This document shows positions 1 to 16,090 of a DNA stretch of 20,046 bases, in pieces. A program made the translations under genes and the position numbers. The number at the start of each line of letters is the position of its first letter. Positions within the stretch are counted from its first letter, which is position 1. Source of the DNA: an uncultured archaeon (GTDB taxonomy: Archaea > Asgardarchaeota > Thorarchaeia > Thorarchaeales > Thorarchaeaceae); assembly GCA_964648855.1 (NCBI GenBank), contig CAZYLT010000028.1:1-20046 (forward strand), read 5' to 3'. The notes beneath the pieces are model-generated. The model saw nothing but the letters and a program-made list of their open reading frames with translations, was not told where the DNA came from and did not search any database.

Positions 1-61
1 GTAACGGTAGCATAGGGGATTGTGGACGTCACTTTCTGCGGCAAAACTCCCCTGACGCGGG
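1..61 (+). pseudogene. Partial tRNA-His(GUG) copy with a 21-nt BHB intron; 5' end cut by the window edge, 3' end truncated after the 5' strand of the T-stem
   Basis: Positions 1-25 and 47-61 match the exons of the complete tRNA-His (10161 to 10101, minus strand) at 40/40 nt. Anticodon GTG is at 22-24 and the intron at 26-46. After GCGGG (57-61) the sequence reads GATACTC instead of TTCAACT, so there is no T-loop or acceptor 3' strand. Confidence 0.88.
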
Positions 62-298
62 GATACTCTCTTTGAGGTCATAATGATTAAGGATTTTTTC
101 CAACTCCGGATTGTAAATCTGGTTATTACCACTCTTTACTCTTAATGTCTAATGAGTATTAACTATCTTTAAATTCACAACAAGCATGCATTTGCATAAG
201 ACTACTCCGTCCATTCCAGTCTGTCTCCATTCAGTTTGAAACAAAAGACGCTGAGGAGGAACATGTAGTCGTAAAATATGAAAAAGGAGCAATAGCAA

Positions 299-496
299 AT
301 GCCACTTGAGAAAATCGATGAAGGATTGAATACATTGAAGGCTGTATTGAGCACTTTGGACAGGTTTAATGCTGATAATCTTGTTTCTTTAAAGGAAAAA
401 GATGAGAAGCTTTACGGAGATGTGATGCTACGAATTGAAACCGCAATAGAAGTAATAAACGGAATTATCAAAGATATGCATGATAATCGAAGATAA
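299..496 (+). CDS. Small hypothetical protein (65 aa, predicted helical)
   Basis: ATG start with AAGGAG just upstream; amphipathic helical composition; no recognisable motif. Confidence 0.6.
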   Translation: MPLEKIDEGLNTLKAVLSTLDRFNADNLVSLKEKDEKLYGDVMLRIETAIEVINGIIKDMHDNRR

Positions 497-702
497 TCAA
501 AATAGATTGTGCTTTGGAAAGGGCAAGGTCAATTGCAAATATGATTCCACTGACAAAGTGAATCCAATCAGCGATAACATCGAATCTCGTTCTAAACGAA
601 GAGGTGTCTTTCCTTGGAGTTGATTTTAGCACAATTTATGAAGAACTTTTTAAGAGCAGTTTCGGACTGTGCTATAGCATTCTGGGTAGGAGCTGTTTGG
701 AA

Positions 703-1656
703 ATGGATAACTTCGATTGGCTGAAAGACAAAGTTGAGAATCTCGCGGGAGTGAAAGAAGAAATAGCGGACCTGTGTGAGAAGGGTGAGTACATAACATA
801 CGACAAGGGGCTTTGGGCATTCTGGAAGCTGCTCATTCATTCCTATTATGTGGACATATTCACTCTAATCACGAAGAAGCGTATGAACAATGTAGTATAC
901 ATCGATCTATTGGCAGGACCCGGCTTTAATTATTTGGCGGATATCAATCTCACTGTGGCAGGCTCACCACTGATTGCAAAGTTGCAGCCCAGAGTAACAA
1001 AAGACGGAAAATCAAAAGCCTTTGATGAAATGATTCTTGTGGACTCTGACAGACGTAATTGCGCAAGCCTCGAAAGAGTATTGAATGAGAGAGTAATTTG
1101 TGCGGACTGCAATTCGTCTGAAGTAATGTCAGCCATTGAAGATGCAATGAAGCCAAGAAAGTCCATATATCTAGCATTTATAGATCCCGAGGGGGTGGAA
1201 GAAGTCCATTGGAATACAATGATGAATCTTTTCAAAATGCCAGGCGACCTAATAATTAATTATCCATGGTCTGGAGCTGCGCGACTAGTAGGAAGCTATC
1301 GCCATACTTCAGGTAGTACCAAAGAAAACATCGGACTGCTAATTGACAAATTCTTTGGAGATGAAACGTGGAGGAATGTTCCAGAGGACTCAGTAGCTGA
1401 TTGGCTCAATGATTTCTATTTAAAGCGTGTAAGAAGATATCGAAGTGAGATTGTCGAATTTCCTATAATGATGATTGGTGGGGCACAGTATCGTATACTA
1501 ATTGCGACACGCCAAACAGAATCAGGTTCGCCTTGGCTCAAGCCGGTTTACCGACTTAGGAATCACCATCTTAACAGGTTGACCGACGAGGACCTAAAAC
1601 GTCTCGTTGAAATTTACAAAGGAGATCAAACAACCCTTGATGAATTCTGCAGCTGA
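703..1656 (+). CDS. tcmP: Three-Cys-motif partner protein TcmP-like SAM-dependent methyltransferase
   Basis: Family-type motifs W..wKL...Y, YIDLLAGPG (SAM-binding), GSPL, ADCN, AFIDPEG, DLIINYP, FFG...W and Y.ILIAT. The ORF is open from 604, but ATG 703 follows a TAGGAG RBS. Adjacent to a three-Cys radical-SAM gene. Confidence 0.85.
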   Translation: MDNFDWLKDKVENLAGVKEEIADLCEKGEYITYDKGLWAFWKLLIHSYYVDIFTLITKKRMNNVVYIDLLAGPGFNYLADINLTVAGSPLIAKLQPRVTKDGKSKAFDEMILVDSDRRNCASLERVLNERVICADCNSSEVMSAIEDAMKPRKSIYLAFIDPEGVEEVHWNTMMNLFKMPGDLIINYPWSGAARLVGSYRHTSGSTKENIGLLIDKFFGDETWRNVPEDSVADWLNDFYLKRVRRYRSEIVEFPIMMIGGAQYRILIATRQTESGSPWLKPVYRLRNHHLNRLTDEDLKRLVEIYKGDQTTLDEFCS

Positions 1657-1718
1657 ATACAAAGAGTCTATAATTTCATACCGTGTGGTTCATAATAGTA
1701 CGTGAAAACAAATAGGAG

Positions 1719-2789
1719 ATGCGTCTGATGGACCTAGTGGAAAAAGGGAATGCCCTAAAGGCAAATGAATTAATCCGACAGAAAGAAGGCCAATCAATAC
1801 GAGTTATAGATTTGATTCAAGACGAGAATATTGTTATTGATGTAAATAGTCTTGTTAAGGCACTCAAAGAGCTAGAGCGACAAGGCGATATCTACATCGA
1901 GAGGCACCCAAGGTTAGAGAACGGAATTATCAGAAAGGATATCCGTTCCTCGGATATTGTTTATTTCAATTGTTTTCCATCTATAGATAGAAAGTCCCTG
2001 CTGTATCAGACGAAGGTGGAGTATGGCGATTATACTATAAATCACATTCTTGGATGCGCGCATGGATGCCAATACCCTTGTTATGCCATGAATATCTCCA
2101 AGAGATGGGGGCGCATATCTGATTATGAAGACTGGATGCATCCCCGAGTTGTAGGAAATGCCCTCGATTTATTGGAAAGAGAATTACCACGGTTGAATGG
2201 TGATATCCAATTTGTCCACATGTCATTTATGACCGATCCGTTCATGTTCGATGCACCAAACAATCGGAATTTTCCTTGGATTCAAAATCTCACACTCGAG
2301 TTGGTTGAGAGAATAAACCAGGAAGCGATTAAAGTTACAACTCTGACAAAGGGGCTTTCTCCTATTGAGCTGACAGCCGGTCGTTTCGACAAAGAAAATG
2401 AATATGGCATAACGCTTGTTTCATTGAGTGACGAATTTCATGCTCAATTTGAGCCATTCTCTGCTGAGCCATTGGCCCGCATCCAAGCACTTGAGAGATT
2501 GCATCAGAATGGATTGAAGACCTGGGTTAGCTTAGAACCATATCCTACTCCAAATATAATTGAGCAGGAACTCTCTGACATCCTTGCTGAAGTGGCATTT
2601 GTGGATAAAATTGTATTCGGAAAGTGGAATTACAATGCATTGATTAATGGACATCCAGATGCAGAGAAATTTTACGTGGAGGGGGCGGGGGAGATCATTC
2701 GATTTGCAAAAGAGAATGGTATCGACTATCATATCAAAGAGGGAACGCCCCGAAATTCAGCGGAAACGGAGAAATTGTTCCTATCATAG
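1719..2789 (+). CDS. Radical SAM protein (SplB-like/three-Cys-motif type) with N-terminal winged-helix-like extension
   Basis: GCAHGCQYPCYA Cys triad (Cys codons 2055, 2067, 2079; Cx3Cx3C spacing), SFMTDPF, LTKG, GITLVS, FEP...P..RI.AL, and TWVSLEP, all typical of SplB-like radical SAM enzymes. Confidence 0.85.
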   Translation: MRLMDLVEKGNALKANELIRQKEGQSIRVIDLIQDENIVIDVNSLVKALKELERQGDIYIERHPRLENGIIRKDIRSSDIVYFNCFPSIDRKSLLYQTKVEYGDYTINHILGCAHGCQYPCYAMNISKRWGRISDYEDWMHPRVVGNALDLLERELPRLNGDIQFVHMSFMTDPFMFDAPNNRNFPWIQNLTLELVERINQEAIKVTTLTKGLSPIELTAGRFDKENEYGITLVSLSDEFHAQFEPFSAEPLARIQALERLHQNGLKTWVSLEPYPTPNIIEQELSDILAEVAFVDKIVFGKWNYNALINGHPDAEKFYVEGAGEIIRFAKENGIDYHIKEGTPRNSAETEKLFLS

Positions 2790-2805
2790 CGGGCAAATGC
2801 TTATG

Positions 2806-5800
2806 TTAGCAGTATTCCTCCTCATATAATGAAAGGCCTCTGTCCTCAATTATTTTACCAACCTCGTCACTAATACACTCTAAATCCCAATTAGAGATGG
2901 TGAGGTGACCTATTCGATGGTCAATCTCTTCCCAGATGGAATTGGACACAACATCCCCCTCTCGTATATGCCGGCTGAGATCTTCAACAATGACAAAGTC
3001 ATCGTAGTTGTCCTGTTCTGCTTGTAGGGCTAATCTCACAATAATCCTAACTAGCCCTCGTCTTCCGACCTTGATGTGAGAGCATAGAAACACTAGGTTT
3101 TCATCAGTACCCCACCCATCTTTAGATTCATCAAGTTCAGGGTCGTACTCGTACTCATCGTCAAGCTCTTTCGTCAGGATTCTGCCTTGAATGGCTGCGT
3201 TAAATCGCTTATACTCTGAAACATCTGGAATCTTGGAAAGGTCAATATCGCCTAATCCTATATCTACTGGATGGCATAACCCCCTCCTACTATCAACAAG
3301 TTGCTTGCAGTCTGCGAGAAGAACGACATCGTATATATGCATAAATTTCCGCTCGAACTGCTTGAAAGGAGAGTTTTCCTCCAACTCTCTGAACTCGATT
3401 CGGAATCGCTTGAATCTGCGTCGTTCAGCAAGAAACTTTTCTTCCTGAATCATCAAGGTGCATCGTGGCCCCTCCTGCATATCTAAGAGTTCTTCGCACG
3501 TTTCAGGAAGTGAGAGAATTTCAGGATAGAAACTGGACCTCTGAACGAACGGTTTCAGAAACGACATATTGATTATAGGTATCTTGTCTTCGCTCTTGAT
3601 TTCAAGGTCGGGGTACACGACATCAGTGACATGGCTCCACACCATCCTCACCCCGTCTGCACTTGATGGGAATTTCCCAGTCCTGAAGGGAGCTCTAATG
3701 TATTCGATAACCTCTTGGGTATATTCTGTTTCAATCCCAATGTATGACTGATTTCCAGCTCTATGCATTACCCGATACACTTCTCTCTCATCGTCAATGG
3801 TGATGTAGCAGTCAACATGTTCAGATTCCACTTCAAACGAAGAGATCTCTCTCAGTAAGTCAACCACTCGTTCATCAGGGTTGTCGGGTAGCTGAACATT
3901 TTCTGGTCTTCTAATAGATAACATAACCTCCTGGGGTGGCCAGGTGATTCTGATCCAGCGAATGGGCACGAACATTCCTTTGGAAGGAAATCCATACTGT
4001 AGCATTCCAAGAATTTGCCATTCATTATCCTCCGCATCCTGCATCCACAGGATTGATTCACCAAGTACTCTCGTTAAGATAATAGGCGTACTCTCATGGT
4101 TCATTAGTGCCTTTTCAGCCTTGGATGCTAGTTCACTCGGGTCAATAACGCAGGGATGAAATCCTGTCCTCAAATGCATGCTTTCTTGATCGGTCAGAAG
4201 GGCAGCTTTCAGAGAGAAGTCTTCTTCAGAGGGCAGAAAAACCCACAGGTCTAGCGGGTAGCTCGGTTCTATACTCAAAATTGCACCAACTTGGTAGTCC
4301 ATTCTTTGGACTAACACATTGCTCGGTTGTGACTGAAGTTGTCTTGCTCGCCACTCCAAATTTGAGTACAGTGCCCTGAAATTGTACACTGATTGTACTC
4401 TGTTGCGTTCTCTTCTTACCGCCTCAAATCCCATTTGTATCGGTATCCAATAAGAAATAGAGTTCCATAGTTTTGCAGTTCTTGGATCAAATGGATGGTC
4501 GAAGTTGTTCCGAGCAGCCACATAAACGGCGAGAAATAGGTTCATTCCGTATAATTGCAGCAGTTGGGGATTCTTGGCTATCGCATCCCTTAGGTTCTTT
4601 TTATTTATGGGATTGAGATTCTGTAGCACCTCTTCTTTTTGCTCATCAATCAGTCGCCATGTCTTTGCTCGGTCATCTCTTTTGAGAATCTCAGCCCTGA
4701 TTTTTTGAAGTGCTTGAAGAAGTACATCAGATGTGCTATTTCCCGATAAAACGCGATTGCATGTCTTCATTATCTTGTGCAAATCAACGTAGAGGTCGTC
4801 GCCCGTGCTCACGGATTTTCGAAGAAATCCCGCAGCCTTCTCTAGTCTTCCAAGCTCCTTTCTTCTGATTATGGTCGAGTCTATAGTGCTGGGAGCCGTG
4901 ACGCCTGTTGGAGGTGGACGAATCGTGGTTCCCGTCACATTTTCTGGACGCCTCTGGTATGACGGCATCGTATCATAAGCCCAAGGACGACTGACAAGGT
5001 CTAGTGAATAGATGTCTTTCTGAGAATGCAATGTTATTGGCATCAACTCATTTTGGACAAGTGTCAATCGCGTTGTAAGTGGCACAGGAGAACCCGGATT
5101 TGATAACGAAGAGATTTCATTCAGGTATTCTGGCAGTTTAGATGAGTGGTCTTTGTTGCTTTCCTGTTGGAAACCCCTGTCAAGACTTGGAAGGAGAGTC
5201 ATAGCGCTTTCTTCCAACTTTTCGCAATCAGAAATCGTGGGAGGAATCATGTTGGAGAGTGTGACCAACCGCCCGTGCATTGTCTGGCTTTTTGTTTGAA
5301 GTTCTGCTAACTCGGAAGTACTCAAAGCGCCTCCCCAATCCTTCAGACCTCTGAACTTACGACCCCATGCCTTCAGACATGGTACATGGATTGCGGTCCG
5401 CCATGGCGGAATAGGGGAGGCGATTTCTTGCACAATCACTCTTATGTCAGAATGTCTAGGGGAACGCCATCCAAATATTCGTGGACTTGTAGGAAGATTC
5501 CAGATTATCTCATCTACTTGCTCCAGCCTAGGCGAGTTGTGATGAAGAGCTTTCGCGCAGCTCCTTTGATAATACGGATTCATTCTATTGTGGTTCCTGG
5601 GTGAATCAATCCAGATTATCTCAATATTCTGATTTGGAAGAACAGAGAGAATCAGTTTCTCAAGAGCTATAGGAACATCCTCCGGTTTCTTTGGCATCAT
5701 CCTTCGAAATTCAGTCCAACCGTCAATGACAAAGATTATGCCGCTTTCATCATGGAAAGAAGCTTGAATTTTTCCAATGAAGTTCCTTAATCCCTCATCA

Positions 5801-7878
5801 ACTCTGCCCGAAACAATTTTGTTGATTTCTGTTTCAAGTGGGAAGAACTCGATACTATCAAGAGTGGCTATCGAAGCGTTTCTTTTTTTCTGGGATAATT
5901 CACCTCTATGATACATTGCTTCAATGCCCATTCTCTTTTTCCGTAGATGCTTTGTGGAGAAATCTCCGAGCAAATCAAGCCAAACAACTCTATGGATGTG
6001 CTGTGAGTGTTCAAGACACTCTTGCAGATGATGGAGAAGGTGCCAGTTCTTCGAAATCCACGCCGCTGCTTTACCAGATGAAGTTGGAGAATCCACCGGC
6101 ACATATACCGTTAATAGCCGTTCATCAGAGATTCGCTTCTCGAAAGGATTATATTCAGGTAGTTGATCAGGTGGAATACATTCGGCGATTAGGTGATGTG
6201 GGCCTTCATTAGAATGCACTAACATAGCAATTCGTGGAGAATTGCTCGTCGCATTTTTCGGTTTCTTCAATCCCACTCTCTTCCAATGGTAGACATCATG
6301 GTTCAAGGTGGCGAGTTCGTCACACAACTGAGAAACCAGTATTTGTGCTGCATCAAAGACCTTCTTGTGATCTTCTTGCGAATCCAGAATCAGTACTCCT
6401 TTCCAGAGCTTTTCAGGAGCTTTAGGGTCGCTTGGCACGAGGTTTTTGTATTCCTGAACTATGTTCTGTTCATACAAGACCAACTGGTCCATCGTGTTGC
6501 CCCGAGGTAGGGAGTTCTCAAGCATATTCCATTCGTGAGCTGTGAACGGCCGCTTGCATGCAAAGAATTCGGGAAGATAGTCGTTACCGCTTCTAGATTT
6601 AGTCGAAAAAAGAGCGAAGTCAATCGAGGTCTTGGTCTTCAGTTCGATCACCATTATGGGCGTAAATACGATTCCCTTTGCGACCTCCCGTCGTACGAAG
6701 ATGACAATGTCTGAAGATCCCCCAGCAATTGGCACCTCGCTGGCAACTAGAATCGGGGACTTGGTGTCCAGAAATTTGTCGCCAGCAAAAACAATCTCTT
6801 TGAAACTGGTAGGTCTGTTGAATCCAGAGAGTAGTATTCTGTGCCACGTATTCCCCTCTCCCACGATGATTCTATTGATTTGTTCTCGTAGCTTCTCCGC
6901 ATCCCTCTCCACAACTATACCGTTGTCAATCATATCTAGGAGTTGACCCAACTTCTTTCGTTCTTCTTTGTCGGTTGTGATGTTTCGCAAATCAATTGCC
7001 TTGCTTCGGATATCGCCGATACTAAGCGAAATTGACTCAGCATCGAGCAGTTCGGTGGTACGCATTCCGCGACCAATTCGCCGACCATAGATGGTTCGAA
7101 TATCCAGAACAATCCCTCGCAGTATCTTATGTCCTTCAGTGTAATAGTCACTACGTCCAGTCTCACCGCCTGTATAGACGTAGTCCAAAAAGGGACGCAG
7201 TCGGTGGATGAGAAGGCGAATGTACCGATGCGATTCGTTTCTGGGAACACTATGGATGAAGCACTGGCGGACTAGTTCAATGATATGAGCACGAATCATG
7301 TCCACGAATTCCAGAGATGGAAGAGAAGAGTGCCTCAAGATGATTCTCGGGCATTTTGAGTTTCCTGGATACCCTGCTCTCCAGTATGATTTGATTGAAT
7401 CGTCATCCGGCACCGCATTAGCCATGCTTTCAGTGAGAACTTTCCTAGAGTCATCAGCGTATACTCGTATTTGATAGAGCAATGGGTCCGGAAATGGGTA
7501 GCGAGTGACAGCAAGGTCACGCAATCGAGCACCGGCAAAATTCAGTAGACCATTAATCGGTCCAACGGTCCCCTCTTCCCAGTTCCGAACTCTCTTGAAT
7601 TCCGTATTCCCGTATTTTCTTGTTGACCACCACAGGATCTGAAGATACATAGACCGCAGATTGTTCTCAGCAGATTGTATTGGCCATATGTCATGTTGAG
7701 TGAAGGACTGTATGTCATTGGCTCTTGTCTGTGCCTTTTTCCATAGACGCTGTGTAGCCTCTACAGCACTCCGTACCTCTTTCTGTCTAGAGGCTCTTGC
7801 TCTAGCCAGGCGAACAAGGACAGCCAATCCTGTATGGATTGAATCTGCTAGCACCTGCGCAGCATGAAAACCTCCCAT
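2806..7878 (-). CDS. Giant hypothetical protein (1690 aa): PD-(D/E)xK nuclease motif, degenerate P-loop NTPase-like region, long acidic C-terminal module
   Basis: Uninterrupted 5-kb ORF with an AGGTGG RBS and TTATAA upstream. SEVPIAGGSSD...VIELKTK...DQLVLY (6472-6738) matches the RecB-like nuclease pattern. SPTSSGK (6070-6090) and IIFVIDG (5719-5739) resemble Walker A and Walker B. Confidence 0.85.
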   Translation of the reverse strand: MGGFHAAQVLADSIHTGLAVLVRLARARASRQKEVRSAVEATQRLWKKAQTRANDIQSFTQHDIWPIQSAENNLRSMYLQILWWSTRKYGNTEFKRVRNWEEGTVGPINGLLNFAGARLRDLAVTRYPFPDPLLYQIRVYADDSRKVLTESMANAVPDDDSIKSYWRAGYPGNSKCPRIILRHSSLPSLEFVDMIRAHIIELVRQCFIHSVPRNESHRYIRLLIHRLRPFLDYVYTGGETGRSDYYTEGHKILRGIVLDIRTIYGRRIGRGMRTTELLDAESISLSIGDIRSKAIDLRNITTDKEERKKLGQLLDMIDNGIVVERDAEKLREQINRIIVGEGNTWHRILLSGFNRPTSFKEIVFAGDKFLDTKSPILVASEVPIAGGSSDIVIFVRREVAKGIVFTPIMVIELKTKTSIDFALFSTKSRSGNDYLPEFFACKRPFTAHEWNMLENSLPRGNTMDQLVLYEQNIVQEYKNLVPSDPKAPEKLWKGVLILDSQEDHKKVFDAAQILVSQLCDELATLNHDVYHWKRVGLKKPKNATSNSPRIAMLVHSNEGPHHLIAECIPPDQLPEYNPFEKRISDERLLTVYVPVDSPTSSGKAAAWISKNWHLLHHLQECLEHSQHIHRVVWLDLLGDFSTKHLRKKRMGIEAMYHRGELSQKKRNASIATLDSIEFFPLETEINKIVSGRVDEGLRNFIGKIQASFHDESGIIFVIDGWTEFRRMMPKKPEDVPIALEKLILSVLPNQNIEIIWIDSPRNHNRMNPYYQRSCAKALHHNSPRLEQVDEIIWNLPTSPRIFGWRSPRHSDIRVIVQEIASPIPPWRTAIHVPCLKAWGRKFRGLKDWGGALSTSELAELQTKSQTMHGRLVTLSNMIPPTISDCEKLEESAMTLLPSLDRGFQQESNKDHSSKLPEYLNEISSLSNPGSPVPLTTRLTLVQNELMPITLHSQKDIYSLDLVSRPWAYDTMPSYQRRPENVTGTTIRPPPTGVTAPSTIDSTIIRRKELGRLEKAAGFLRKSVSTGDDLYVDLHKIMKTCNRVLSGNSTSDVLLQALQKIRAEILKRDDRAKTWRLIDEQKEEVLQNLNPINKKNLRDAIAKNPQLLQLYGMNLFLAVYVAARNNFDHPFDPRTAKLWNSISYWIPIQMGFEAVRRERNRVQSVYNFRALYSNLEWRARQLQSQPSNVLVQRMDYQVGAILSIEPSYPLDLWVFLPSEEDFSLKAALLTDQESMHLRTGFHPCVIDPSELASKAEKALMNHESTPIILTRVLGESILWMQDAEDNEWQILGMLQYGFPSKGMFVPIRWIRITWPPQEVMLSIRRPENVQLPDNPDERVVDLLREISSFEVESEHVDCYITIDDEREVYRVMHRAGNQSYIGIETEYTQEVIEYIRAPFRTGKFPSSADGVRMVWSHVTDVVYPDLEIKSEDKIPIINMSFLKPFVQRSSFYPEILSLPETCEELLDMQEGPRCTLMIQEEKFLAERRRFKRFRIEFRELEENSPFKQFERKFMHIYDVVLLADCKQLVDSRRGLCHPVDIGLGDIDLSKIPDVSEYKRFNAAIQGRILTKELDDEYEYDPELDESKDGWGTDENLVFLCSHIKVGRRGLVRIIVRLALQAEQDNYDDFVIVEDLSRHIREGDVVSNSIWEEIDHRIGHLTISNWDLECISDEVGKIIEDRGLSLYEEEYC

Positions 7879-7901
7879 TCCACCTAAATTGTCAAATCCA
7901 C

Positions 7902-7910
7902 TTATAAGTT
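7902..7910 (-). promoter_or_regulatory. Putative archaeal BRE/TATA box for the giant gene
   Basis: Minus strand reads AACTTATAA about 25-30 nt upstream of the ATG at 7878. Confidence 0.5.
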
Positions 7911-8003
7911 GTACCGGAGTGAATCAAATATATAATAAGCATTATGGGGCTTTTTTTCTTCATTTAGAAGTCTAATAGTGCTTTATTTCAATAATTGCTT
8001 AAT

Positions 8004-8112
8004 AACCTTAAATACTGCAGTACATACAATTGTACGAGTTCAAAACCCCCTGTCGGTATGGATATGGGAGTGAACTCAGCTGACCGAGACAGGTCAGAAC
8101 CTTAAATACTGC
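8004..8112 (+). repeat. 15-bp direct repeat AACCTTAAATACTGC (8004-8018 and 8098-8112), each copy containing a BRE/TATA-like box
   Basis: Exact match read directly from the sequence; 79 bp between the copies. Confidence 0.85.
8036..8097 (+). ncRNA. Candidate structured small RNA or 5' leader upstream of tnpB
   Basis: Stem GAGTTCA (8036-8042)/TGAACTC (8071-8077) encloses an inner stem, followed by hairpin CTGACC-GAGACA-GGTCAG (8080-8097). It begins 28 nt after the first TTAAATA box, where an archaeal start site is expected. Confidence 0.4.
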
Positions 8113-8118
8113 TAGGCG

Positions 8119-9792
8119 TTGAAGATGAACAAAACCGACACCGTGAACATTGCTGTTAAGATCCCCATCAACACTGAAGTAATGACTGATAGGTCGTTGC
8201 GGAGGTTGAGGCAAATCACGGGAAGGGACAGCAGGATCATCCGTGCGAACCTTGGAATCATCGAGGACAATGAGAAGGACCTTCTTCAAGGGGGGCCTAG
8301 GAAACGCATTGAGGAGAATAGGCTGCGAGAAATGACACTAACTGCCTTGAGAGTGAAGAGTGGCTACAAGCAGAGGTTGACTGTTCCCCATGACTTGAAG
8401 GAACGTTTCCCACGTACTTCAACCAATGAGCTTGACCAGTGTCGCAAGACTGCAGTCATGTTGTACGATGCATATCTGACATTGCGACAGAGGAATCCAA
8501 GGATGAGGAGACCGTGCAAGACAAATCCTGACGGCAAAATTCCCCGTTGGGTTTTTCTTAAGTGCTTCAGGTTGAAACATTCACCCACTACGATATCTCG
8601 GTGGTGGCTTGATTTACGAGACGCTCTCGATTCTGTTCCAGAAGGCAGACCCACACACGACCGATTGAGACTTCCCCTGAAAGTCACTCCATTCCATGAG
8701 GATCAACTCAATAGGGGAGAAGTGAAGGCCGTCCAGATCTTCTGTGATAGGCATGGCAAGTGGTGGACTGCCTTCGCCGTGACACTATTGGTAGCAGTGC
8801 ACGATTTGAAGGATGACTTACCCTTTGCCATACTTGGTATCGATCTCGGGGTGAAGAAAGCAGTCTGTAGTGTTCTCCTCACAGAGCACAAAGTGTCCGA
8901 AACAAGATACTTCATCCAAAAGGAAAAGCGGGACTCAATGATGCAGTATGATGCCAGAGTTGCCGACCTACAGCAGGCAATAGAGAAGAAGAGAATCAGT
9001 GGAGATGAGGGCAGGCTTCTTATGAAGCTCAAGAGTTTCAGAACAAAACGGGAAGATGTATCCAAGACCCATGATCGTATTCTGGTCAGCAACCTAATCT
9101 CATACATAGGGGAACTCGACCAGAAGTGCAATCTCTTTGTTGCCATCGGGAAGCTCAAGGGGATTCGTTATGCTGCAAGAAGAGGCAACTACCGAGGTAA
9201 TCGCTACCGTGGCATGGTACATAGATGGTCTTACTTCCGGATCACAGAAGCCTTGAAGCACGGACTCGCACAACTTGGCTGGCCGGTTGAAGGAGGCAAG
9301 GCACGAATCCGAGCGGTGCCTGAACAATGGACCTCAATCAAATGCTGGAAGTGTGGACAGAAGGGATATCGCCCGAAGCAGTCCCTCTTTGTCTGCCACA
9401 CGTGTGGCTTTAGAACCAACGCCGACCGAAATGGTGCGCTTAACATAGCGCGCCGACTCATTACGCTCATTCCTTTACTACAGAATGAGACCGGACTAGG
9501 GCGGTGGGTGTCCCCCGAGCGGGCCCCAGCCCCGAAGGCTGTAAGGAAGACTCGTTCTTCTAAGCAGAAGTCCTCACTCAACAAGATGGAAGTTTCGTCA
9601 ACCTCCGTTGAGTCCGCGGCCGTTCATCATGTCCAATTGGATGTTCTCAGATTCAGTGATGGCTCTGAGATGGATGATTATGACCCTGCCGTGGCAAAAG
9701 CTGTGGAAACACTTCCTGCGGCCAGAAGTGACGAGCTGGCGAAATCGCAGAAGACAGAAGCCAGGTCTGATGGAGGGACGGTGTCCCGATGA
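8119..9792 (+). CDS. tnpB: TnpB-family RNA-guided endonuclease with rearranged RuvC-II and C-terminal extension (557 aa from TTG 8119; ATG 8125 or GTG 8143 also possible)
   Basis: RuvC-I ILGIDLG (D242); RuvC-II strand LFVAIGKL with G344 at the usual Glu position; WSY motif; VPEQWTS (E402); Zn finger CWKC...CHTC; RuvC-III NADRNGALNI (D436). Confidence 0.93.
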   Translation: MKMNKTDTVNIAVKIPINTEVMTDRSLRRLRQITGRDSRIIRANLGIIEDNEKDLLQGGPRKRIEENRLREMTLTALRVKSGYKQRLTVPHDLKERFPRTSTNELDQCRKTAVMLYDAYLTLRQRNPRMRRPCKTNPDGKIPRWVFLKCFRLKHSPTTISRWWLDLRDALDSVPEGRPTHDRLRLPLKVTPFHEDQLNRGEVKAVQIFCDRHGKWWTAFAVTLLVAVHDLKDDLPFAILGIDLGVKKAVCSVLLTEHKVSETRYFIQKEKRDSMMQYDARVADLQQAIEKKRISGDEGRLLMKLKSFRTKREDVSKTHDRILVSNLISYIGELDQKCNLFVAIGKLKGIRYAARRGNYRGNRYRGMVHRWSYFRITEALKHGLAQLGWPVEGGKARIRAVPEQWTSIKCWKCGQKGYRPKQSLFVCHTCGFRTNADRNGALNIARRLITLIPLLQNETGLGRWVSPERAPAPKAVRKTRSSKQKSSLNKMEVSSTSVESAAVHHVQLDVLRFSDGSEMDDYDPAVAKAVETLPAARSDELAKSQKTEARSDGGTVSR

Positions 9793-10070
9793 TTCCAGAC
9801 AAAGCCCATGCTGCCTCATGCCCACCCAGTATGAGATCGGTGGCGACACCAGGTATGGGAAGGGTGGAACACAGAAGTTTCTTGCAGATGACGTTCACTC
9901 ACATTCTAGGAGACAGGTCAGGGCGCGGGAATCGAACCAAATGTATTGTGAAGAAATGGAGAATTCAATATACTGCAGCAAGGCGAGAGGACGTAGGGAA
10001 CACAATGCGATTGCGGAACCCACATGATTTTCTTATTCATGAGGAGGATATCTTTCTTAATTCTATAAAG
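9766..10070 (+). ncRNA. Putative omegaRNA (reRNA) scaffold plus guide; boundaries approximate
   Basis: Dense stems around the tnpB stop: CCCATGCT/GGTATGGG (9805-9859), CTCATGC/GTATGAG (9815-9835) and GGTG-GCGA-CACC with a GNRA loop (9839-9850). Possible pseudoknot CCACCC (9822-9827)/GGGTGG (9862-9867). Terminal hairpin at 10020-10044. TnpB omegaRNAs are known to lie at this position. Confidence 0.65.
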
Positions 10071-10077
10071 GAACAGA

Positions 10078-10173
10078 TGGGGCCCGGGGCGGGAGTTGAA
10101 CCCGCGTCAGGGGAGGTCTGCCGCCAAGAATGGCGTCCACAATCCCCTATGCTACCGTTACACCACCCAGGCC
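10078..10173 (-). tRNA. tRNA-His(GUG) with encoded G-1, C73 and CCA, and a 21-nt intron at 37/38 (10116-10136)
   Basis: Full cloverleaf: acceptor GCCTGGG/CCCGGGC, anticodon stem GGGGA/TCCCC, anticodon 10138-10140, T-arm GCGGG-TTCAACT-CCCGC. BHB motif: TTGT pairs with GCAG, two 3-nt bulges, intron hairpin CGCCA-TTCT-TGGCG. Confidence 0.97.
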
Positions 10174-10276
10174 ATGGTTTGGTGGGTAGCATTTCATCGC
10201 ACAACCGATTGAACTTATTAGCTTATCCATATTCCTACTCTATGAAGCCAACCAATCACAACAGCGAGGTTATTAT

Positions 10277-11926
10277 TTGAAGACTTCCATCCAGAAAAAA
10301 GAACTCGGCGCGTACTACACAGATCCCCGAGTGGCGGAGTTCTTGGTTCGCTGGGCGGTGAGAACCCCCAATGACAGAATACTCGACCCTTCTTTTGGAG
10401 AGGGTGTCTTTCTGGAAGCGGCTCTAAATGTAATGGGAGAATCTAAGGAGGTTGGGGAGCAGATTTATGGTGTCGAAATAGATGACTCGGAATATGATAG
10501 GGCGATAGAGAAATTCTCTGAATGGATTCCAGAAGAAAATCTCATTCACTCCGATTTCTTTGAAGTGATAGGGGGCGAGAATCATGGAACACTCGCTGAA
10601 ACTCAAGTGCCCGCTGTAGATGCGGTAGTTGGAAATCCTCCTTACATAAGGTATCACAGATGGAAAGGGAAGACTCGGAAAAGAGCGCAGGAAAAGGCCG
10701 AAACTCTAGGCGTTGAAATCAACGGGTTGAGCTCATCGTGGGCTCCCTTTGTGGTGTATTCCACTTCATTCCTTAAAAAGGGTGGACGCCTGGCCATGGT
10801 ATTACCCGCCGAAATCATGCATGCCTTCTACGCGAAACCGGTATTGGAGTACTTACATCAGACATTCAAGTTAGTGCGTCTGATTGCATTTCGCGAGAAG
10901 CTTTTCAGCCAGTTGTCAGAAGACACCTTGCTGATTCTCTGTGATGAAAAGGGTTGTGGGCCTTCTGAGATGTTCTTGACAGAGCTGCAAAACGTCTCAA
11001 AGATAGACGAGGAAATACCGACTGGGACCTCAGTTGAGTCGAAGTCCGTATTGGCTGGCGAGTCAAAGCTGATTGAGTATCTTCTGCCTGACAAGATCCG
11101 CCAGCTCTATTCGAGAATAAAGCAGGATGCACGTTCAGTCAAGCTCGGCGACATTGCTGATGTCGGTATTGGATACGTCACAGGGAATAATGATTTCTTC
11201 CACCTCTCACGATCTGAAGTAGAAGCCTTAGGGATCCCTGAAGAAGCGCTTTCAAGATGCCTTAGAAATAGTAGGCACATCCAAGGCCTTGTTGTAACAG
11301 ATGATGATTGGGAAAAGCTGAGAAACAAGGGTGAGGCCGTATTCCTGCTCAATCTGGCAGGTCTCGAGCCTCTGGCTGATGCAATTGAGGAGTATCTAAG
11401 AACTGGAGAAGAACGTGGTGTCCATCAAGGGTACAAGTGTAGAAATCGCAAGCCTTGGTATGTAGTTCCTCATGTCTACAAGTCTGATGGACTTCTCACC
11501 TATATGAGTGGAAAACGGTCAAGGCTCGTAGTCAATAAGGCTGGCATCTATGTTCCGAATACTTTGCATACTGTAAGACTTAGAGAACCGCATAATGACA
11601 TTATGCTTCAGCTTTCTCTTAGTTGGCTCAGCAGTTTCACAAGACTTAGTGTTGAAATAGAGGGCCGGAGCTTAGGGGGAGGTATGTTAAAACTTGAACC
11701 AAGTGAAGCTCAGAGGGTTCTGGTGACACTGCCGGAGCTGGCACCAAAGCCATTGAATAACACTACAAACAAAATAGACCATCTTCTTCGTGACAATAAA
11801 TGGACTGAAGCCATGTTAGTCGCAGACCATGCGGTTCTTCGGCAAACCCTGGGATTGGATGATGAAGAAATACAATTGCTAAGGCAAGGGGCTAAGGAGC
11901 TTCGAGAGAAGCGATATTCTCGTTAA
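10277..11926 (+). CDS. N6-adenine DNA methyltransferase, gamma class (type II restriction-modification)
   Basis: GAYYTD, motif I LDPSFGEGVF preceding motif IV VGNPPY, LKKGGRLAMVLP, and a C-terminal TRD with KCRNRKPWY and EGRSLGGGMLKLEP. Confidence 0.92.
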   Translation: MKTSIQKKELGAYYTDPRVAEFLVRWAVRTPNDRILDPSFGEGVFLEAALNVMGESKEVGEQIYGVEIDDSEYDRAIEKFSEWIPEENLIHSDFFEVIGGENHGTLAETQVPAVDAVVGNPPYIRYHRWKGKTRKRAQEKAETLGVEINGLSSSWAPFVVYSTSFLKKGGRLAMVLPAEIMHAFYAKPVLEYLHQTFKLVRLIAFREKLFSQLSEDTLLILCDEKGCGPSEMFLTELQNVSKIDEEIPTGTSVESKSVLAGESKLIEYLLPDKIRQLYSRIKQDARSVKLGDIADVGIGYVTGNNDFFHLSRSEVEALGIPEEALSRCLRNSRHIQGLVVTDDDWEKLRNKGEAVFLLNLAGLEPLADAIEEYLRTGEERGVHQGYKCRNRKPWYVVPHVYKSDGLLTYMSGKRSRLVVNKAGIYVPNTLHTVRLREPHNDIMLQLSLSWLSSFTRLSVEIEGRSLGGGMLKLEPSEAQRVLVTLPELAPKPLNNTTNKIDHLLRDNKWTEAMLVADHAVLRQTLGLDDEEIQLLRQGAKELREKRYSR

Positions 11927-11948
11927 TCTCTGGTTCCGAGTGTTGTGA

Positions 11949-12827
11949 TTATTCATACTTTTCGTCATATTGCGCCGCAATTGTTTCTAGTGCGTTTTCG
12001 TACCGGACAGCTTCATATTTTTTATCTTTGAAAACCAAGGGGTCTTCCAATCTCGGGCGGTCAATATTGTCAAGATGACAAAATTGAATCGCGAATCCAT
12101 CGTAACCACCACCGCTTAACTGCTTAATAGGCACGTCTTGGATAATAATGTCTAGTGTCTTCTCGGGTTCGTCGGGCTTATTCCTAGATATCATTGTTTC
12201 GGGTAATGCTGGGTCTTCAACGAATTCTCTTATCTTCTCGTTGCCCGTACCAATCATTCCCTCCAATTCTTTGAGATTGAATTTCGATTCAGAACAGAGA
12301 TGCGATAATACGTCCCGGGCTCTGATAAATGTTTCATAATTCAAGAACTTATCTGCAGTTCCGATAATAAAAGTCCCTACAAGAAGCACATGTCTGTGTT
12401 GGCCATCTCTCACTGCTTCGGCTAGATCAGCGAGAATTCTAGTTCTATTGTATACATTTCTATGAGCAGTTATCAGGCTCTTGTTTTCCATGATCAAACG
12501 AATGTCCTTCGGTTCGGACTCTCGGATTCGTTGAAATCCCTGATTCTTTGGATCGATACTAGTCTGTTGTGATGAATCTTCTCTTGTTCCCAGAACCAAG
12601 TCTAGGACATGTTGCCTTCCGCCGAGGCCAAGCCGATGGTTTACCTTGTAACAGATAGTTCCAGCATCAACATCAGACTTGAAGATTGAACTCACATGAT
12701 ACAAATCCCTGAGGAATTCCTTGCTAAGGTAATCAGAATGAAATCCGGTTCTTGGATGGTGTATTCTCTCTCTTTCTAGATAGCTGACCAGTCGCTCAAA
12801 TGCGGTCCTATTTAGTCCGATATTCAA
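11949..12827 (-). CDS. Putative type II restriction endonuclease (PD-(D/E)xK fold)
   Basis: HVLDLVLG...IRLIMENKS catalytic-type motif; convergent with the methyltransferase, 22 bp between the stop codons. Confidence 0.7.
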   Translation of the reverse strand: MNIGLNRTAFERLVSYLERERIHHPRTGFHSDYLSKEFLRDLYHVSSIFKSDVDAGTICYKVNHRLGLGGRQHVLDLVLGTREDSSQQTSIDPKNQGFQRIRESEPKDIRLIMENKSLITAHRNVYNRTRILADLAEAVRDGQHRHVLLVGTFIIGTADKFLNYETFIRARDVLSHLCSESKFNLKELEGMIGTGNEKIREFVEDPALPETMISRNKPDEPEKTLDIIIQDVPIKQLSGGGYDGFAIQFCHLDNIDRPRLEDPLVFKDKKYEAVRYENALETIAAQYDEKYE

Positions 12828-13040
12828 TACTAACTAACCATTGCAATCAGTAGCAATACACGGTAATAATTCTTTATCAGTCTACAAAACTACAATCGAG
12901 AGCTAAAAAATCATTGCACAATAGAGCAATTGTATTTTCCATGCAAGTTAGGTGCGGGGAGATATGCCAAATAAAATAGCCTGCATTCCAAATTCCAAGA
13001 GGCGACCTGATAACCGTTATTCTTATCTTAACAACAGTCA

Positions 13041-14261
13041 TTGGAAACACTAAGCAAAGGTAGGAAGGCGCCAGTATTGGTTGACTTGGAAAAGGGAGAA
13101 GGTATATGGAATTTCATAGAAATTGATGACAGTAAAATAGAAACAGACATCAGCTCCAACCCTCTAAAGTATATCGATAAACTTACCGAAAAATTGGATG
13201 GGGCTGATTTGGAAACAGTCGGCAAAGGAGTCATATCAGGCAACAAACTAAGAATTGCTTCAGGCGTTGAGGAGATATATAACCAAAGTCCGGACAGATT
13301 CATGACATTGGTTTGCATTATGGAGTTTGTAAATCGAAAACCCAAGGCGGTCTATGAAATAGCGGAGGAGGCATTCGCCAAAAAGGGGCAACCGAATATA
13401 AGCGACAATGGGCCAATCGCCCATGCATATAAATTATATGAGAAAGACCCGAAACTGCTTTTCGATGTCTATCTGAGAAATCAAGTGATCAGAAAAGGAT
13501 TTGATAGCTACAAACTGATAAGCAAGAAAAAGTCGTTCCCGCAACACCCTCTGCAGAAAATAGATGAGAATAGAATCAATACCTTTCTCAAAGATGTAGA
13601 CTCGCAGTTCAATGATGGTCTAGAAAGCAAATGCTGGCATGTTTCACATTATGGAAGTACAACTGAAGTGTACCTTAGAAGACAAGATGAACCGATTCTA
13701 CTGAAGAAACTTCTAAGAAATATTCGCCAAACCATGGCAAGTTCGACAATTCTACGCTTTGACAAACACGGCCGGAATGTAGACCTTTGGTCAGAGAAGC
13801 ATTCGGTCGCGGAAAAGCTACTTAATCATCTTTCTAAGAAGATTTTTGAGAAAGATGCAAAATATGAGCCAGAAGTATACAGAAACAGTAAAGCCGATGT
13901 TAAAAATTGGCTTGGAGCAATAATGCATGGTCAGGATAGTGACATGAAACTACTCAAAATAAAGAGGAGAAATGCTCCAATCAAAGGCAGTCCAAAAATA
14001 ACCATAGAATCATCAAGGTCGATTCATGTTTCATTGAACTCGTTGAAACAAGCTGGTATTGATCTTAGCAAAGATTGCGCTACTGAAACAGAGGAGATTA
14101 GCATTGAGTACAAATCAACCAAGTATTTATTTGGATTAAGAATCAGCAATGGGTCCATTGTTGTTTATAGCAAGAGACAAAGAGGGACAAAGAAAGCAAT
14201 GGAATCGATTATCACATATTTGAAAAAAGAATATAGCATCAAGATATCACTGAGCAACTGA
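13041..14261 (+). CDS. Hypothetical protein (406 aa, Lys-rich), first gene of a two-gene operon
   Basis: Long ORF in AT-rich DNA, 5 bp upstream of the next gene; no catalytic motif recognised. Confidence 0.8.
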   Translation: METLSKGRKAPVLVDLEKGEGIWNFIEIDDSKIETDISSNPLKYIDKLTEKLDGADLETVGKGVISGNKLRIASGVEEIYNQSPDRFMTLVCIMEFVNRKPKAVYEIAEEAFAKKGQPNISDNGPIAHAYKLYEKDPKLLFDVYLRNQVIRKGFDSYKLISKKKSFPQHPLQKIDENRINTFLKDVDSQFNDGLESKCWHVSHYGSTTEVYLRRQDEPILLKKLLRNIRQTMASSTILRFDKHGRNVDLWSEKHSVAEKLLNHLSKKIFEKDAKYEPEVYRNSKADVKNWLGAIMHGQDSDMKLLKIKRRNAPIKGSPKITIESSRSIHVSLNSLKQAGIDLSKDCATETEEISIEYKSTKYLFGLRISNGSIVVYSKRQRGTKKAMESIITYLKKEYSIKISLSN

Positions 14262-14266
14262 TCATA

Positions 14267-15394: not shown

Positions 15395-15401
15395 TGGCGA
15401 T

Positions 15402-15716
15402 TTAGAACTCTAGGACTCGCTCCTCATTATTTGTGTTTCCCGGGTTCACTTCATCCATCAATTCTACTATTTTTTCAGTCTTTTCTGAGCAAATCAGTTC
15501 CTTGAATTCCTGCAAGTCATTCATGGATCGGATGTAGAGATCGTTTTTCTTCTTACGTTTTCCAGCTTCGTCTACTGGATTGATAACCACAGCCAATGAG
15601 GGCGGGCCGCCTTCGTTTCGGGGAGGCATTTTACAGATTTTCAATCCCGCGATGTTAGTTTTAACTTTCTCCCATGCTTTTGCATCTCTCAATATTTCTT
15701 CAAGCTCACCCTTCAT
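15402..15716 (-). CDS. Small archaeal-type hypothetical protein (104 aa)
   Basis: AGGTG RBS upstream; protein-like charged composition (WEKVKT.I.G..I.K.P...LAV.INPVD..G). The resemblance to conserved archaeal hypotheticals is from memory only. Confidence 0.75.
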   Translation of the reverse strand: MKGELEEILRDAKAWEKVKTNIAGLKICKMPPRNEGGPPSLAVVINPVDEAGKRKKKNDLYIRSMNDLQEFKELICSEKTEKIVELMDEVNPGNTNNEERVLEF

Positions 15717-16090
15717 GAAAGCAACACCTTACAAATAGAACAAAGAATTGGAGGAATTTAGTTGTTTTCCTGCAGAAGCTGTCTTCTCGTATGCTCTTGA
15801 TACAATTATAATTAGCATAAGGCACATCGCCCGCCCCGGGCCCTTTACTTCAATATATATTTCATTAACATTTCACTTCGGGCCATAAAGAGGACTTGCA
15901 CTCCGAACTTCACTCATCCAATACTTTCAGAATTTATTTCTAACGGTTCAATGTGATATCTGCTGGTCGAGCCAAATGTAGTATCTTTATCCAAGCCAGA
16001 GTGGCTTATATACGAGGAATGAGTGAAAGTCACCCCCATAAGAAACGACCATCCCTTAATTAGAGAAAAAGGAATGTGAGGGCGAAGTAA

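Follow-up and report, generated by a model that had tools for sequence, protein, structure and literature searches.

A giant Cas1-like protein encoded head-to-head with TnpB in Asgard archaea is probably the integrase of a mobile element

We analysed a 20,046-nucleotide stretch of DNA from an uncultured thorarchaeon (hereafter the window) and found that the 1690-aa protein encoded on its minus strand is one of the giant Asgard Cas1 homologs (the aCas1 family) and not a new defence effector. The study reported to have defined aCas1 is that of Makarova et al. 2020 (CRISPR J), and we infer the match to that family from shared locus features. Our preferred reading, to which we give a probability of about 0.6, is that the locus is a mobile element carrying TnpB and that aCas1 serves as its integrase or transposase, together with the divergently encoded TnpB and a guide-RNA region. 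The aCas1-TnpB class is already in the literature, where it is described only computationally; its loci, the groups Cas1H-Asgard-1 and Cas1H-Asgard-2, were presented as a probable transposon, with a variable stretch and then a conserved GTTCACTCA downstream of tnpB (Altae-Tran et al. 2023, PMC10691335). To this published context, we add a domain map and an association with tRNA ends.

The protein is encoded by a single minus-strand open reading frame, noted in a preliminary description of this DNA, and this frame is real. Its extent and domains are as follows.

2806–7878, minus strand: giant ORF of the aCas1 family (P0001), 1690 aa
7069–7878, minus strand: Cas1-like alpha-helical catalytic domain, aa 1–270 (VIA, hhalign, PF01867, conservation)
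6304–6816, minus strand: predicted RecB-type PD-(D/E)xK nuclease domain, aa ~355–525 (invariant motifs, strand and helix order in the AF2 model)
5371–6129, minus strand: RecA/Rad51-paralog-like domain whose P-loop is degenerate, aa 584–836 (Foldseek, VIA)
4927–5370, minus strand: linker, aa 837–984, poorly conserved, with short conserved Pro/Arg motifs (low pLDDT, conservation lists)
4324–4926, minus strand: helical domain, aa 985–1185 (VIA, weak)
2809–4311, minus strand: C-terminal beta-rich module, aa 1190–1690, joined by a flexible linker (pLDDT >90)

The first ~340 aa, passed over in the preliminary description, are the best-conserved part of the protein and are Cas1-like. Homologs of the 1690-aa protein formed 106 full-length clusters, in nearly all cases from Thorarchaeota; the hosts are Candidatus Thorarchaeota, plus a single Heimdallarchaeota contig. 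Residue counts out of 70 refer to an alignment of 70 homologs that includes a subfamily of 25–30% identity, the alignments being built from domain slices cut out of the loci. The whole protein gave nothing usable against Pfam, NCBIfam or PADLOC, and HMM profiles of aa 1–870 and of the nuclease domain found only chance matches among PDB sequences. The AF2 model of aa 1–870 reached a pLDDT of 88.3 and a pTM of 0.87.

We then compared the model with known structures and found that aa 1–250 matched ten Cas1 or casposase structures (VIA, Z 12.8–9.4), with other families absent from this region. The best match was 8flj_A (rmsd 4.2, 178 residues aligned), whose Z of 12.8, as VIA itself remarks, is a borderline value where a domain is helical, followed by 4n06_B (Z 12.3, rmsd 3.9, 193 aligned) and by eight further Cas1 or casposase entries (Z 11.7–9.4), including the casposase 6opm_A (Z 10.4). 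These alignments span only the C-terminal domains of the Cas1 chains (residues 84–345 of 4n06_B, for example), and the canonical N-terminal beta-sandwich of Cas1 is absent, as the AF2 model opens with helices. Conservation points to four candidate metal-binding residues.

7666–7668, minus strand: E71, candidate metal-binding residue
7330–7332, minus strand: H183, candidate metal-binding residue
7309–7311, minus strand: E190, candidate metal-binding residue
7300–7302, minus strand: D193, candidate metal-binding residue

E71 and D193 are kept in 70/70 homologs and H183 in 64/70, and position 190, which is Glu in the window protein, is Asp in 69/70 relatives; N109 and R196 of the same domain are likewise conserved (70/70 each). 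The fold predicted for aa 1–250 is that of the helical catalytic domain in Cas1, with the Glu/His/Asp/Asp residues conserved. At the sequence level, the link to Cas1 is weak. Two hhalign comparisons with Cas1 were non-significant (E 0.007 and 0.09), with an agreeing register: in both, the conserved residues fall on the Cas1 Glu and on the NxLLSxGY and D-L-x-E-E-F-R motifs. PF01867 was the top-scoring Pfam family across 71 members, with a sub-cut-off E of 3.9e-4 in two of them; it did not match the window's 1690-aa protein, and a genome search by PF01867 misses the family. A profile of the Cas1-like domain run against 1.84 billion proteins retrieved only its own family. The large Asgard Cas1 proteins (1323–1363 aa, with a C-terminal Cas1 domain), considered as a bridge, proved unrelated by HMM.

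The nuclease domain follows. The preliminary description had placed a RecB-type motif set (E-x-P...D...ExK...QLxxY) here, and its positions were correct: E381 (codon 6736–6738), D390, K414, Q465 and Y469 (codon 6472–6474) are each present in all 70 homologs, position 412 is E in 48 and D in 22, and G387 is kept in 69/70. This invariance is far more than chance would give, and the motif set is live-looking. In the AF2 model, the motifs are carried by a strand-strand-strand-helix arrangement, the order expected of a restriction-endonuclease-like fold, and are placed as in RecB-family nucleases; the Foldseek and VIA matches listed for the aa 1–870 model are to Cas1 and RecA domains, with no nuclease among those listed. 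The domain has no conserved cysteines, and so the four-cysteine Fe-S cluster of Cas4 is absent; nor was there profile similarity to 13 Asgard Cas4 sequences (hhalign E 0.19). A Pfam search with 77 members of the nuclease domain found no nuclease family, and an ESM Atlas search with aa 340–575 gave no usable match.

As the preliminary description had suspected, the P-loop-like segment is RecA/KaiC-like: aa 584–836 have the RecA/Rad51-paralog/KaiC/DnaB fold (Foldseek E 1.3e-5; VIA Z 12.2–10), with Foldseek matches to Rad51 paralogs, RadA and DnaB. Its three motifs (SPTSSGK, VVWLDL and IIFVIDG) are all present, and the last two fall in conserved positions, namely W633-x-D635 (W633 67/70, D635 69/70) and D719-G720-W721 (48/70, 69/70 and 61/70, respectively), but the Walker A lysine is mostly lost. 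SPTSSGK lies at aa 597–603, with S600 in 61/70, G602 in 67/70 and K603 in only 15/70; the GxxxxGK[ST] pattern is missing, since its first Gly is Ser in 60/70 and its Lys is kept in those 15 alone. The residue after the lysine position is S, T or A among homologs, and Glu is never found at position 637 in the 70. The segment S-P-T-S-S-G resembles the P-loop G-P-E-S-S-G-K-T of RecA-type proteins. In summary, the suggestion that the NTPase might be inactive was well placed, and from these residues the RecA-like domain is probably inactive.

In the C-terminal half, aa 985–1185 matched 11 Cas1 or casposase entries at a VIA Z of 5–6.3, which weakly suggests that this region may be a second, catalytically dead Cas1-like domain; an hhalign duplication test against the first helical domain and against Cas1 gave no signal. 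The C-terminal ~700 aa had no confident match by Foldseek, VIA or ESM Atlas: the best Foldseek E for the C-terminal model was 0.014, VIA gave none with Z >= 8, and ESM Atlas with aa 1190–1690 gave no usable match. Two VIA matches, one of the last 90 aa to PSRP-3/Ycf65-like proteins (Z 6.8) and one of the C-terminal model to the LigD phosphoesterase (Z 4.7), were taken as noise. The C-terminal module also occurs on its own in the window, and intact 504-aa orthologs of this stand-alone form, 84–89% identical, are present in two other assemblies.

16091–17605, plus strand: separate gene for a 504-aa paralog of the C-terminal module (59% identity with aa 1188–1689)

We next looked at the neighbourhood of the giant gene, using ORF calls made on the loci themselves. 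The gene upstream encodes a TnpB-like protein and is followed by a conserved non-coding region.

7879–8118: divergent aCas1/tnpB intergenic region, 240 bp, with head-to-head spacing across loci
8119–9792, plus strand: TnpB-like RuvC nuclease, 557 aa (PF07282, E 2e-10; Cas12f/Cas12u models)
9793–9921, plus strand: conserved 3' non-coding region, a putative omegaRNA-like scaffold, with GTTCACTCA at 9893–9901 and AGGTCAG at its end
9922–9938, plus strand: 17-nt candidate guide or flank, an exact antisense match to a tRNA 3' end (T-arm and acceptor)
10078–10172, minus strand: tRNA-His (GTG) with an intron, convergent with tnpB (Rfam 49.6 bits, aragorn -i)

A divergent upstream tnpB was found within about 3.3 kb in 68 loci, and in 63 it stands head-to-head with aCas1 at a distance of 70–270 bp (241 bp in the window), an arrangement that holds in the 25%-identity subfamily and on the Heimdallarchaeota contig. 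There were no other conserved neighbours, as each non-tnpB cluster occurred in at most 9 of the 88 loci. The TnpB residues D242 and D436 and the CxxC..CxxC zinc finger are invariant in 41 partners, by which TnpB is predicted to be catalytically intact. The pairwise identities of aCas1 and TnpB gave a Spearman coefficient of 0.15, inside the permutation range, and co-evolution is thus unsupported. GTTCACTCA, which in the window lies 103 nt beyond the tnpB stop, was present in 26 of 54 tnpB 3' regions (25 loci), and it is confined to one of two TnpB length classes. In strain and paralog contigs, divergence starts after 9921. The 17-mer that follows is unique in the genome; 17-mers at this post-scaffold position are separated by point changes and correspond to flanking tRNA ends.

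The distribution of the family was then examined. Of 43 genomes searched in the window's Thorarchaeota family, 28 had matches, as did one of seven in a second Asgard family; the search of the other 150 Asgard genomes gave none. There are one to eight matches per genome, many of them truncated or stop-containing, and several of the 15 same-family genomes that have no match are >95% complete. Such patchiness, together with multiple and often fragmented copies, is more in keeping with a mobile element than with a defence gene. Between copies in differing contexts, DNA homology covers the two genes only and ends 2–135 bp outside them; at one locus, both homology stops carry an imperfect terminal inverted repeat. 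Of the flanking repeats that belong to the aCas1-TnpB class, clear examples were seen in few loci (an inverted repeat in L056; tRNA-derived repeats in L014, L020 and L006), and in most loci clear terminal inverted repeats and target duplications are lacking; in the window, the flanking repeats (z 2.4) did not rise above shuffled controls. The element ends are abutted by tRNA genes or tRNA 3' fragments, and T-arm motifs are over-represented in the flanking DNA, at 7/40 and 4/57 where 1.5% and 0.8% would be expected. Within a genome, no two copies are nearly identical; paralogs in the window's genome share at most 59% identity, and so give no sign of recent transposition. An empty-site search in four DNA metagenomes found no contig cleanly joined across the element; a joint from 55 to 9316 was discarded as an empty site, as one side has 30 letters and it ends inside tnpB.

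The same observations could be read as a domesticated host function, in which an immobile pair acts on host DNA, for instance by maintaining or rearranging tRNA loci under RNA guidance. The paralogs are indeed old and diverged, with recent copies absent, tRNA genes recur at the ends, and an inverted partial tRNA-His copy at 1–61 brackets, together with the tRNA-His gene, the window's 10-kb segment. However, a host function sits poorly with the same-family genomes that have no match, with flanks that vary and with the many pseudogene-like copies, and we consider domestication unlikely.

A further possibility is that the locus is a guide-writing module, in which aCas1 would capture short DNA and install or replace the guide by the TnpB scaffold, a one-spacer counterpart of CRISPR adaptation. 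A Cas1-like domain and a PD-(D/E)xK domain, the activity pair of Cas1 and Cas4, do occur in one protein beside a Cas12 ancestor, the variable stretch adjoins the repeat-like GTTCACTCA, which the published description likened to a CRISPR repeat, and the sequence past the scaffold end differs between strains. However, the window has no tandem CRISPR array, and no Cas2 was among its PADLOC and Pfam matches. The variable stretches flanking GTTCACTCA look mutually complementary by eye, and may therefore form a covarying stem instead of representing a spacer. Moreover, the point changes in the 17-mers and their matches to flanking tRNA ends are what is expected of ordinary transposon flanks, and guide writing appears improbable.

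The proposal of the preliminary description, an undescribed defence effector of the nuclease-NTPase-sensor type that would sense infection and degrade DNA with TnpB as an accessory, draws on the intact nuclease motifs, on a long C-terminus that could be a sensor and on the defence-like genes that the window does contain (a TcmP/radical-SAM pair matching PDC-M41 models and an Eco57I-type methyltransferase), but it is a poor candidate, since the locus matches the published class, the protein has no PADLOC, Pfam or NCBIfam defence match, none of the defence-like genes is conserved as a neighbour, the ATPase domain has a degenerate RecA-like fold and is not a STAND (NACHT or NB-ARC) module, the N-terminus is an integrase-type domain and one to eight diverged, often broken copies per genome would be unusual for a defence gene.

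Under the mobile-element reading, the Cas1-like domain would use transesterification to join the ends of the element to target DNA, as happens in Cas1 and casposases, and the PD-(D/E)xK domain would cut or trim these ends in the manner of Cas4 or TnsA, with the RecA-like domain, probably inactive, and the C-terminal modules holding the assembly and DNA together. TnpB, guided by its own 3'-end-encoded RNA, would cut target sites that are unoccupied, often the 3' ends of tRNA genes, and this cutting would lead to the element being kept or copied. In a bolder and doubtful version, the single-protein integrase and nuclease would either integrate the element where the TnpB guide directs it (here, tRNA 3' ends) or write the 17-nt guide beside the TnpB scaffold.

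Cas1 is the integrase of CRISPR systems and TnpB the ancestor of Cas12, and the two are supposed to have separate mobile-element origins; Asgard archaea are the archaea closest to eukaryotes. Here, a Cas1-like domain, TnpB and a RecB-type nuclease are found together in one compact unit that is abundant in one Asgard family. If the bolder version were true, then, either way, a Cas12 ancestor would have been working alongside Cas1-type integration before there were CRISPR arrays, and the aCas1-TnpB unit would be a living link from transposons to type V CRISPR. If aCas1 were shown to integrate DNA, it would represent a new transposase architecture, and its targets may be RNA-guided or tRNA-directed, which suggests a possible integrase-plus-guide tool.

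Among known systems, Avs/STAND proteins, to which the preliminary description had likened the protein, resemble aCas1 only in the loose order of a nuclease, an NTPase-like domain and a long C-terminus; the analogy fails, since aCas1 has a RecA-like NTPase fold, an integrase-type, Cas1-like N-terminus and a TnpB partner. The RecA core fold is common to aCas1 and to Rad51 paralogs and KaiC-like proteins (XRCC2, RadB, PH0284), and the domain in aCas1 resembles a non-hydrolysing scaffold of the XRCC2 kind. It differs from those proteins in being one domain of a giant multidomain protein and in retaining neither the Walker A lysine nor the catalytic Glu position.

Cas4-Cas1 fusions and Cas4/Cas1/Cas2 complexes (7mi4, 8d3p) likewise unite a Cas1-type integrase and a RecB-family nuclease in one assembly. 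However, the order in aCas1 is the reverse of that in the fusions, with the Cas1-like domain first, and its nuclease has neither the cysteine cluster of Cas4 nor similarity to the Asgard Cas4 profile. In casposases (6opm), a Cas1-type catalytic domain acts as a transposon integrase, a role that is presumed for aCas1, and some casposons carry Cas4-like nucleases (PMC8464041). Casposases are about 300–450 aa long and have an N-terminal beta domain, and their elements include a family B polymerase and are bounded by clear inverted repeats and target duplications, whereas aCas1 has 1690 aa without the beta domain, and its unit has TnpB in place of a polymerase, none being found among the conserved neighbours of the 88 loci.

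The closest likeness is to the published aCas1-TnpB loci (PMC10691335), with which no tested feature of the window is in conflict. As in the window, these loci have an Asgard host and a tnpB beside a Cas1-variant gene, their variable stretch and GTTCACTCA lie downstream of tnpB, as at 9893–9901 here, and their TnpB proteins fall into two length classes, only one of which has the motif, as in our loci.

The window spans an entire contig (C28; 20,046 bp) of a genome of 3.1 Mb that is 94.6% complete, and its locus is best read as an aCas1-TnpB element ("Asgard Cas1"), with the giant protein as its integrase/transposase. This reading rests directly on folds, conserved catalytic residues, a constant partner gene, a published motif and a patchy multi-copy distribution. 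The genes concerned are:

2806-7878, minus strand: giant gene, a single ORF of 1690 aa
8119-9792, plus strand: tnpB, the divergent partner gene (PF07282, E 2e-10; Cas12f/Cas12u models)
16091-17605, plus strand: stand-alone gene of 504 aa, with 59% identity to giant-protein aa 1188-1689

Pfam, NCBIfam and PADLOC scans of the whole giant protein matched no model. A search of 5.8 billion protein clusters gave 106 relatives, nearly all of 1300-1900 aa, which align end to end at 29-39% identity; those with names all come from Candidatus Thorarchaeota or related Asgard archaea. Since a profile search of 1.84 billion representatives returned 132 proteins, all from the aCas1 family itself, the family stands apart by sequence. 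The nuclease and P-loop-like motifs read in this ORF by the preliminary description were found in place, and their conservation among 70 sequences is far above chance. E381, D390, K414, Q465 and Y469 are invariant in these 70, including a subfamily of 25-30% identity, and only Glu or Asp occurs at position 412.

Two AlphaFold2 models were made, with homologous domain slices taken from the fetched loci as input. In the model of aa 1-870 (pLDDT 88.3, pTM 0.87), the nuclease domain shows the strand-strand-strand-helix order bearing the RecB motifs; it is not Cas4, as it lacks both conserved cysteines and any profile similarity to Asgard Cas4. The region of aa ~585-840 resembles Rad51 paralogs, RadA, RecA and DnaB in Foldseek (best E 1.3e-5), and XRCC2 (chain 8faz_X, Z 12.2), KaiC (11.2) and Elp456 (11.1) in an independent structure search. 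The "Walker A" string S597-P-T-S-S-G-K603 retains Ser600 and Gly602, but its lysine occurs in only 15 of 70 sequences; W633-x-D635 and D719-G720-W721 are conserved in the same 70. The position of the catalytic Glu in the RecA/RadA "IDTEG" strand, assigned by motif reading rather than superposition, is never Glu in the family. The two fold searches and the lost lysine thus bear out the earlier suggestion of a RecA/KaiC-like, possibly inactive NTPase.

The N-terminus, which the preliminary description had passed over, resembles the C-terminal catalytic domain of Cas1 in a structure search with the AlphaFold2 model, and no family other than Cas1/casposase was returned for residues 1-250.

Structure-search matches of giant-protein residues 1-250
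8flj_A, Cas1: Z 12.8, rmsd 4.2, 178 aligned
4n06_B, Cas1: Z 12.3
4w8k_A, Cas1: Z 11.7
7kft_D, Cas1: Z 11.3
6qxf_I, Cas1: Z 11.1
2yzs_B, Cas1: Z 10.7
6opm_A, casposase: Z 10.4
8d3p_A, Cas1: Z 9.8
7cr6_A, Cas1: Z 9.4

By the tool's own warning, helical domains need Z of about 13 for safety, and we therefore sought independent support. Invariant residues fit the Cas1 active site: E71 (in a helix), N109-x-x-L-N113-Y, H183 and D190-F-V-D193-M-I-R196 mirror the canonical pattern Glu ... NxLLSxGY ... His ... D-L-x-E-E-F-R from an alignment of 28 Asgard Cas1 proteins. Two hhalign runs against Cas1 placed the same residues in register at non-significant E-values (0.007 and 0.09), and when 71 members were scanned singly, the top-scoring Pfam family was PF01867 (Cas1), with E 3.9e-4 in 2 of them. 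The giant protein lacks the N-terminal beta domain that canonical Cas1 has. Separately, two other Asgard genomes (G041, G058) encode 1323-1363-aa proteins with a C-terminal Cas1 domain (PF01867, 29-40 bits; loci L118:4538-8626, L119:4769-8776 and L120:4474-8442), which are unrelated to the aCas1 family by HMM and constitute a separate group of giant Cas1 proteins.

In the C-terminal model (aa 985-1690; pLDDT 90.5, pTM 0.59), aa 990-1172 weakly resemble Cas1 (11 entries, Z 5-6.3) with no sequence support, hinting at best at a second, dead Cas1-like domain. The last 500 aa form a confidently predicted beta-rich module, for which structure and other fold searches gave no match. The stand-alone gene opens with Met-Asp-Tyr-Gln, as the internal module does, and is probably functional rather than a fragment, because intact 504-aa orthologs occur in two other Thorarchaeota assemblies (84% and 89% identity).

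To compare neighbourhoods, ORFs were called and clustered in 79 loci of species-representative genomes together with the paralogous loci of the window's genome. Besides aCas1 itself, only one cluster is recurrent: a protein of 550-730 aa, found in 72 of 88 loci. Of its copies, 68 are upstream and divergent, at a distance of 70-270 bp from the giant gene in 63 cases; where the cluster is missing, the locus is mostly truncated by a contig end. Every other cluster occurs in at most 9 of the 88. The TnpB nuclease is probably active, since all of 41 partners share RuvC D242 and D436 as well as the CxxC..CxxC zinc finger. Across 41 loci with both genes complete, aCas1 and TnpB identities barely correlate (Spearman 0.15, within permutations), which suggests that partners were swapped between elements; the 550-aa and 720-aa TnpB classes each pair with diverse aCas1 lineages. 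One sublineage (L018, L023, L036, L044) has a ~230-aa gene between tnpB and aCas1, in a gap of 1.1-1.3 kb. The preliminary description had proposed a defence effector; its ORF, motifs and possibly inactive RecA-like NTPase stand, but the absence of a PADLOC match, the Cas1-like N-terminus and the constant tnpB make that role unlikely.

Downstream of tnpB in published aCas1 loci, a variable stretch is followed by a conserved GTTCACTCA motif (PMC10691335). In the window, GTTCACTCA lies at 9893-9901, 103 nt past the tnpB stop. Of 54 tnpB 3′ regions, 26 (from 25 loci) carry it, and the 720-aa TnpB class lacks it, in agreement with the two groups described in print. An adaptation-like role of aCas1 in guide writing would give a meaning to such variable stretches, and we consider it improbable. 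As a side observation, the stretches on both sides of the motif (9870-9921; ~25 loci) look mutually complementary (CAGTTG/CAACTG in L023, CACAGT/ACTGTG in L004, CTTACA/TGTAAG in L041) and may form a covarying hairpin with GTTCACTCA in its loop, rather than a guide. A 163-aa ORF (9789-10280, plus strand) is probably not a gene, because it overlaps this 3′ RNA region and a tRNA-His gene.

Several observations favour a mobile unit. Within the family to which the window's genome belongs, aCas1 was found in 28 of 43 genomes; it was also found in 1 of 7 of a second family and in none of the other 150 Asgard genomes searched. Genomes carry 1-8 matches, many truncated or stop-containing; in the window's genome there are six copies or more, all paired with a tnpB wherever the contig reaches far enough. 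When copies from different contexts are compared, their DNA similarity is confined to tnpB and aCas1 (7.0-7.7 kb) and stops 2-135 bp beyond the genes, and one locus (L056) has an imperfect 21-nt inverted repeat at both homology ends. The conserved tnpB 3′ region ends in AGGTCAG (9921 in the window), beyond which sequences diverge, including between strains in the source metagenomes. There often follows an antisense tRNA 3′ end (a full tRNA-Gly in L010 and L011); in the window this is a 17-mer at 9922-9938, found nowhere else in the genome. L010 and L011 also carry a diverged direct copy of the tRNA 3′ half after the aCas1 stop codon, and in L005, L019 and L017 a tRNA gene begins ~20 nt past that stop. 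Both flanks hold more T-arm-like motifs than expected (7/40 and 4/57, versus 1.5% and 0.8%), with fewer independent cases because some loci share ancestry. Against mobility, no genome has near-identical copies, clear terminal repeats are absent in most loci, the metagenomes searched yielded no empty-site contig, and the identities of the two genes hardly correlate. Domestication of the pair as a host function would sit with the lack of near-identical copies; set beside the patchy distribution and the many broken copies, we give it little credence.

Around the pair, an intron-containing tRNA-His (GTG; 10078-10172, minus strand) and its inverted partial copy (1-61, plus strand; 89% match) enclose TcmP, a radical SAM gene and the aCas1-tnpB pair; in L014 (tRNA-His) and L020 (tRNA-Leu) the pair is flanked by similar inverted repeats derived from tRNA. 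TcmP (604-1656, plus strand; TIGR04474, E 6e-20) and the radical SAM gene (1719-2789, plus strand), both weak matches to the PADLOC candidate pair PDC-M41A/B, are convergent with the aCas1 gene, the stop codons being separated by 16 bp. In metagenome run X4, positions 10238 and 16066 are joined in one contig (depth 21, 30-letter side), so the 5.8-kb stretch 10239-16065, with an Eco57I-type methyltransferase and three unknown genes, may be missing or replaced in a related strain. Minor contigs of two runs (depth 5-6 versus ~100) link precisely the last position of the tnpB 3′ scaffold, 9921, to 15843 on the other strand, which may reflect a rearrangement or the flank of another copy.

In the aCas1-TnpB element, the Cas1-like domain would carry out integration, the PD-(D/E)xK domain would cut or trim ends, and the dead RecA-like domain and C-terminal modules would act as a scaffold, while TnpB may make guided cuts at unoccupied tRNA-end sites. 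The giant gene belongs to a kind already described computationally: "aCas1-associated TnpBs" comprise two Asgard groups, and aCas1 has been proposed as the transposase of a distinct transposon family (PMC10691335). From the matching locus features, we infer that the giant protein is of the same family as the aCas1 of Makarova 2020. The existence of the system will not surprise specialists, and it bears on how the ancestors of Cas1 and Cas12 came together.
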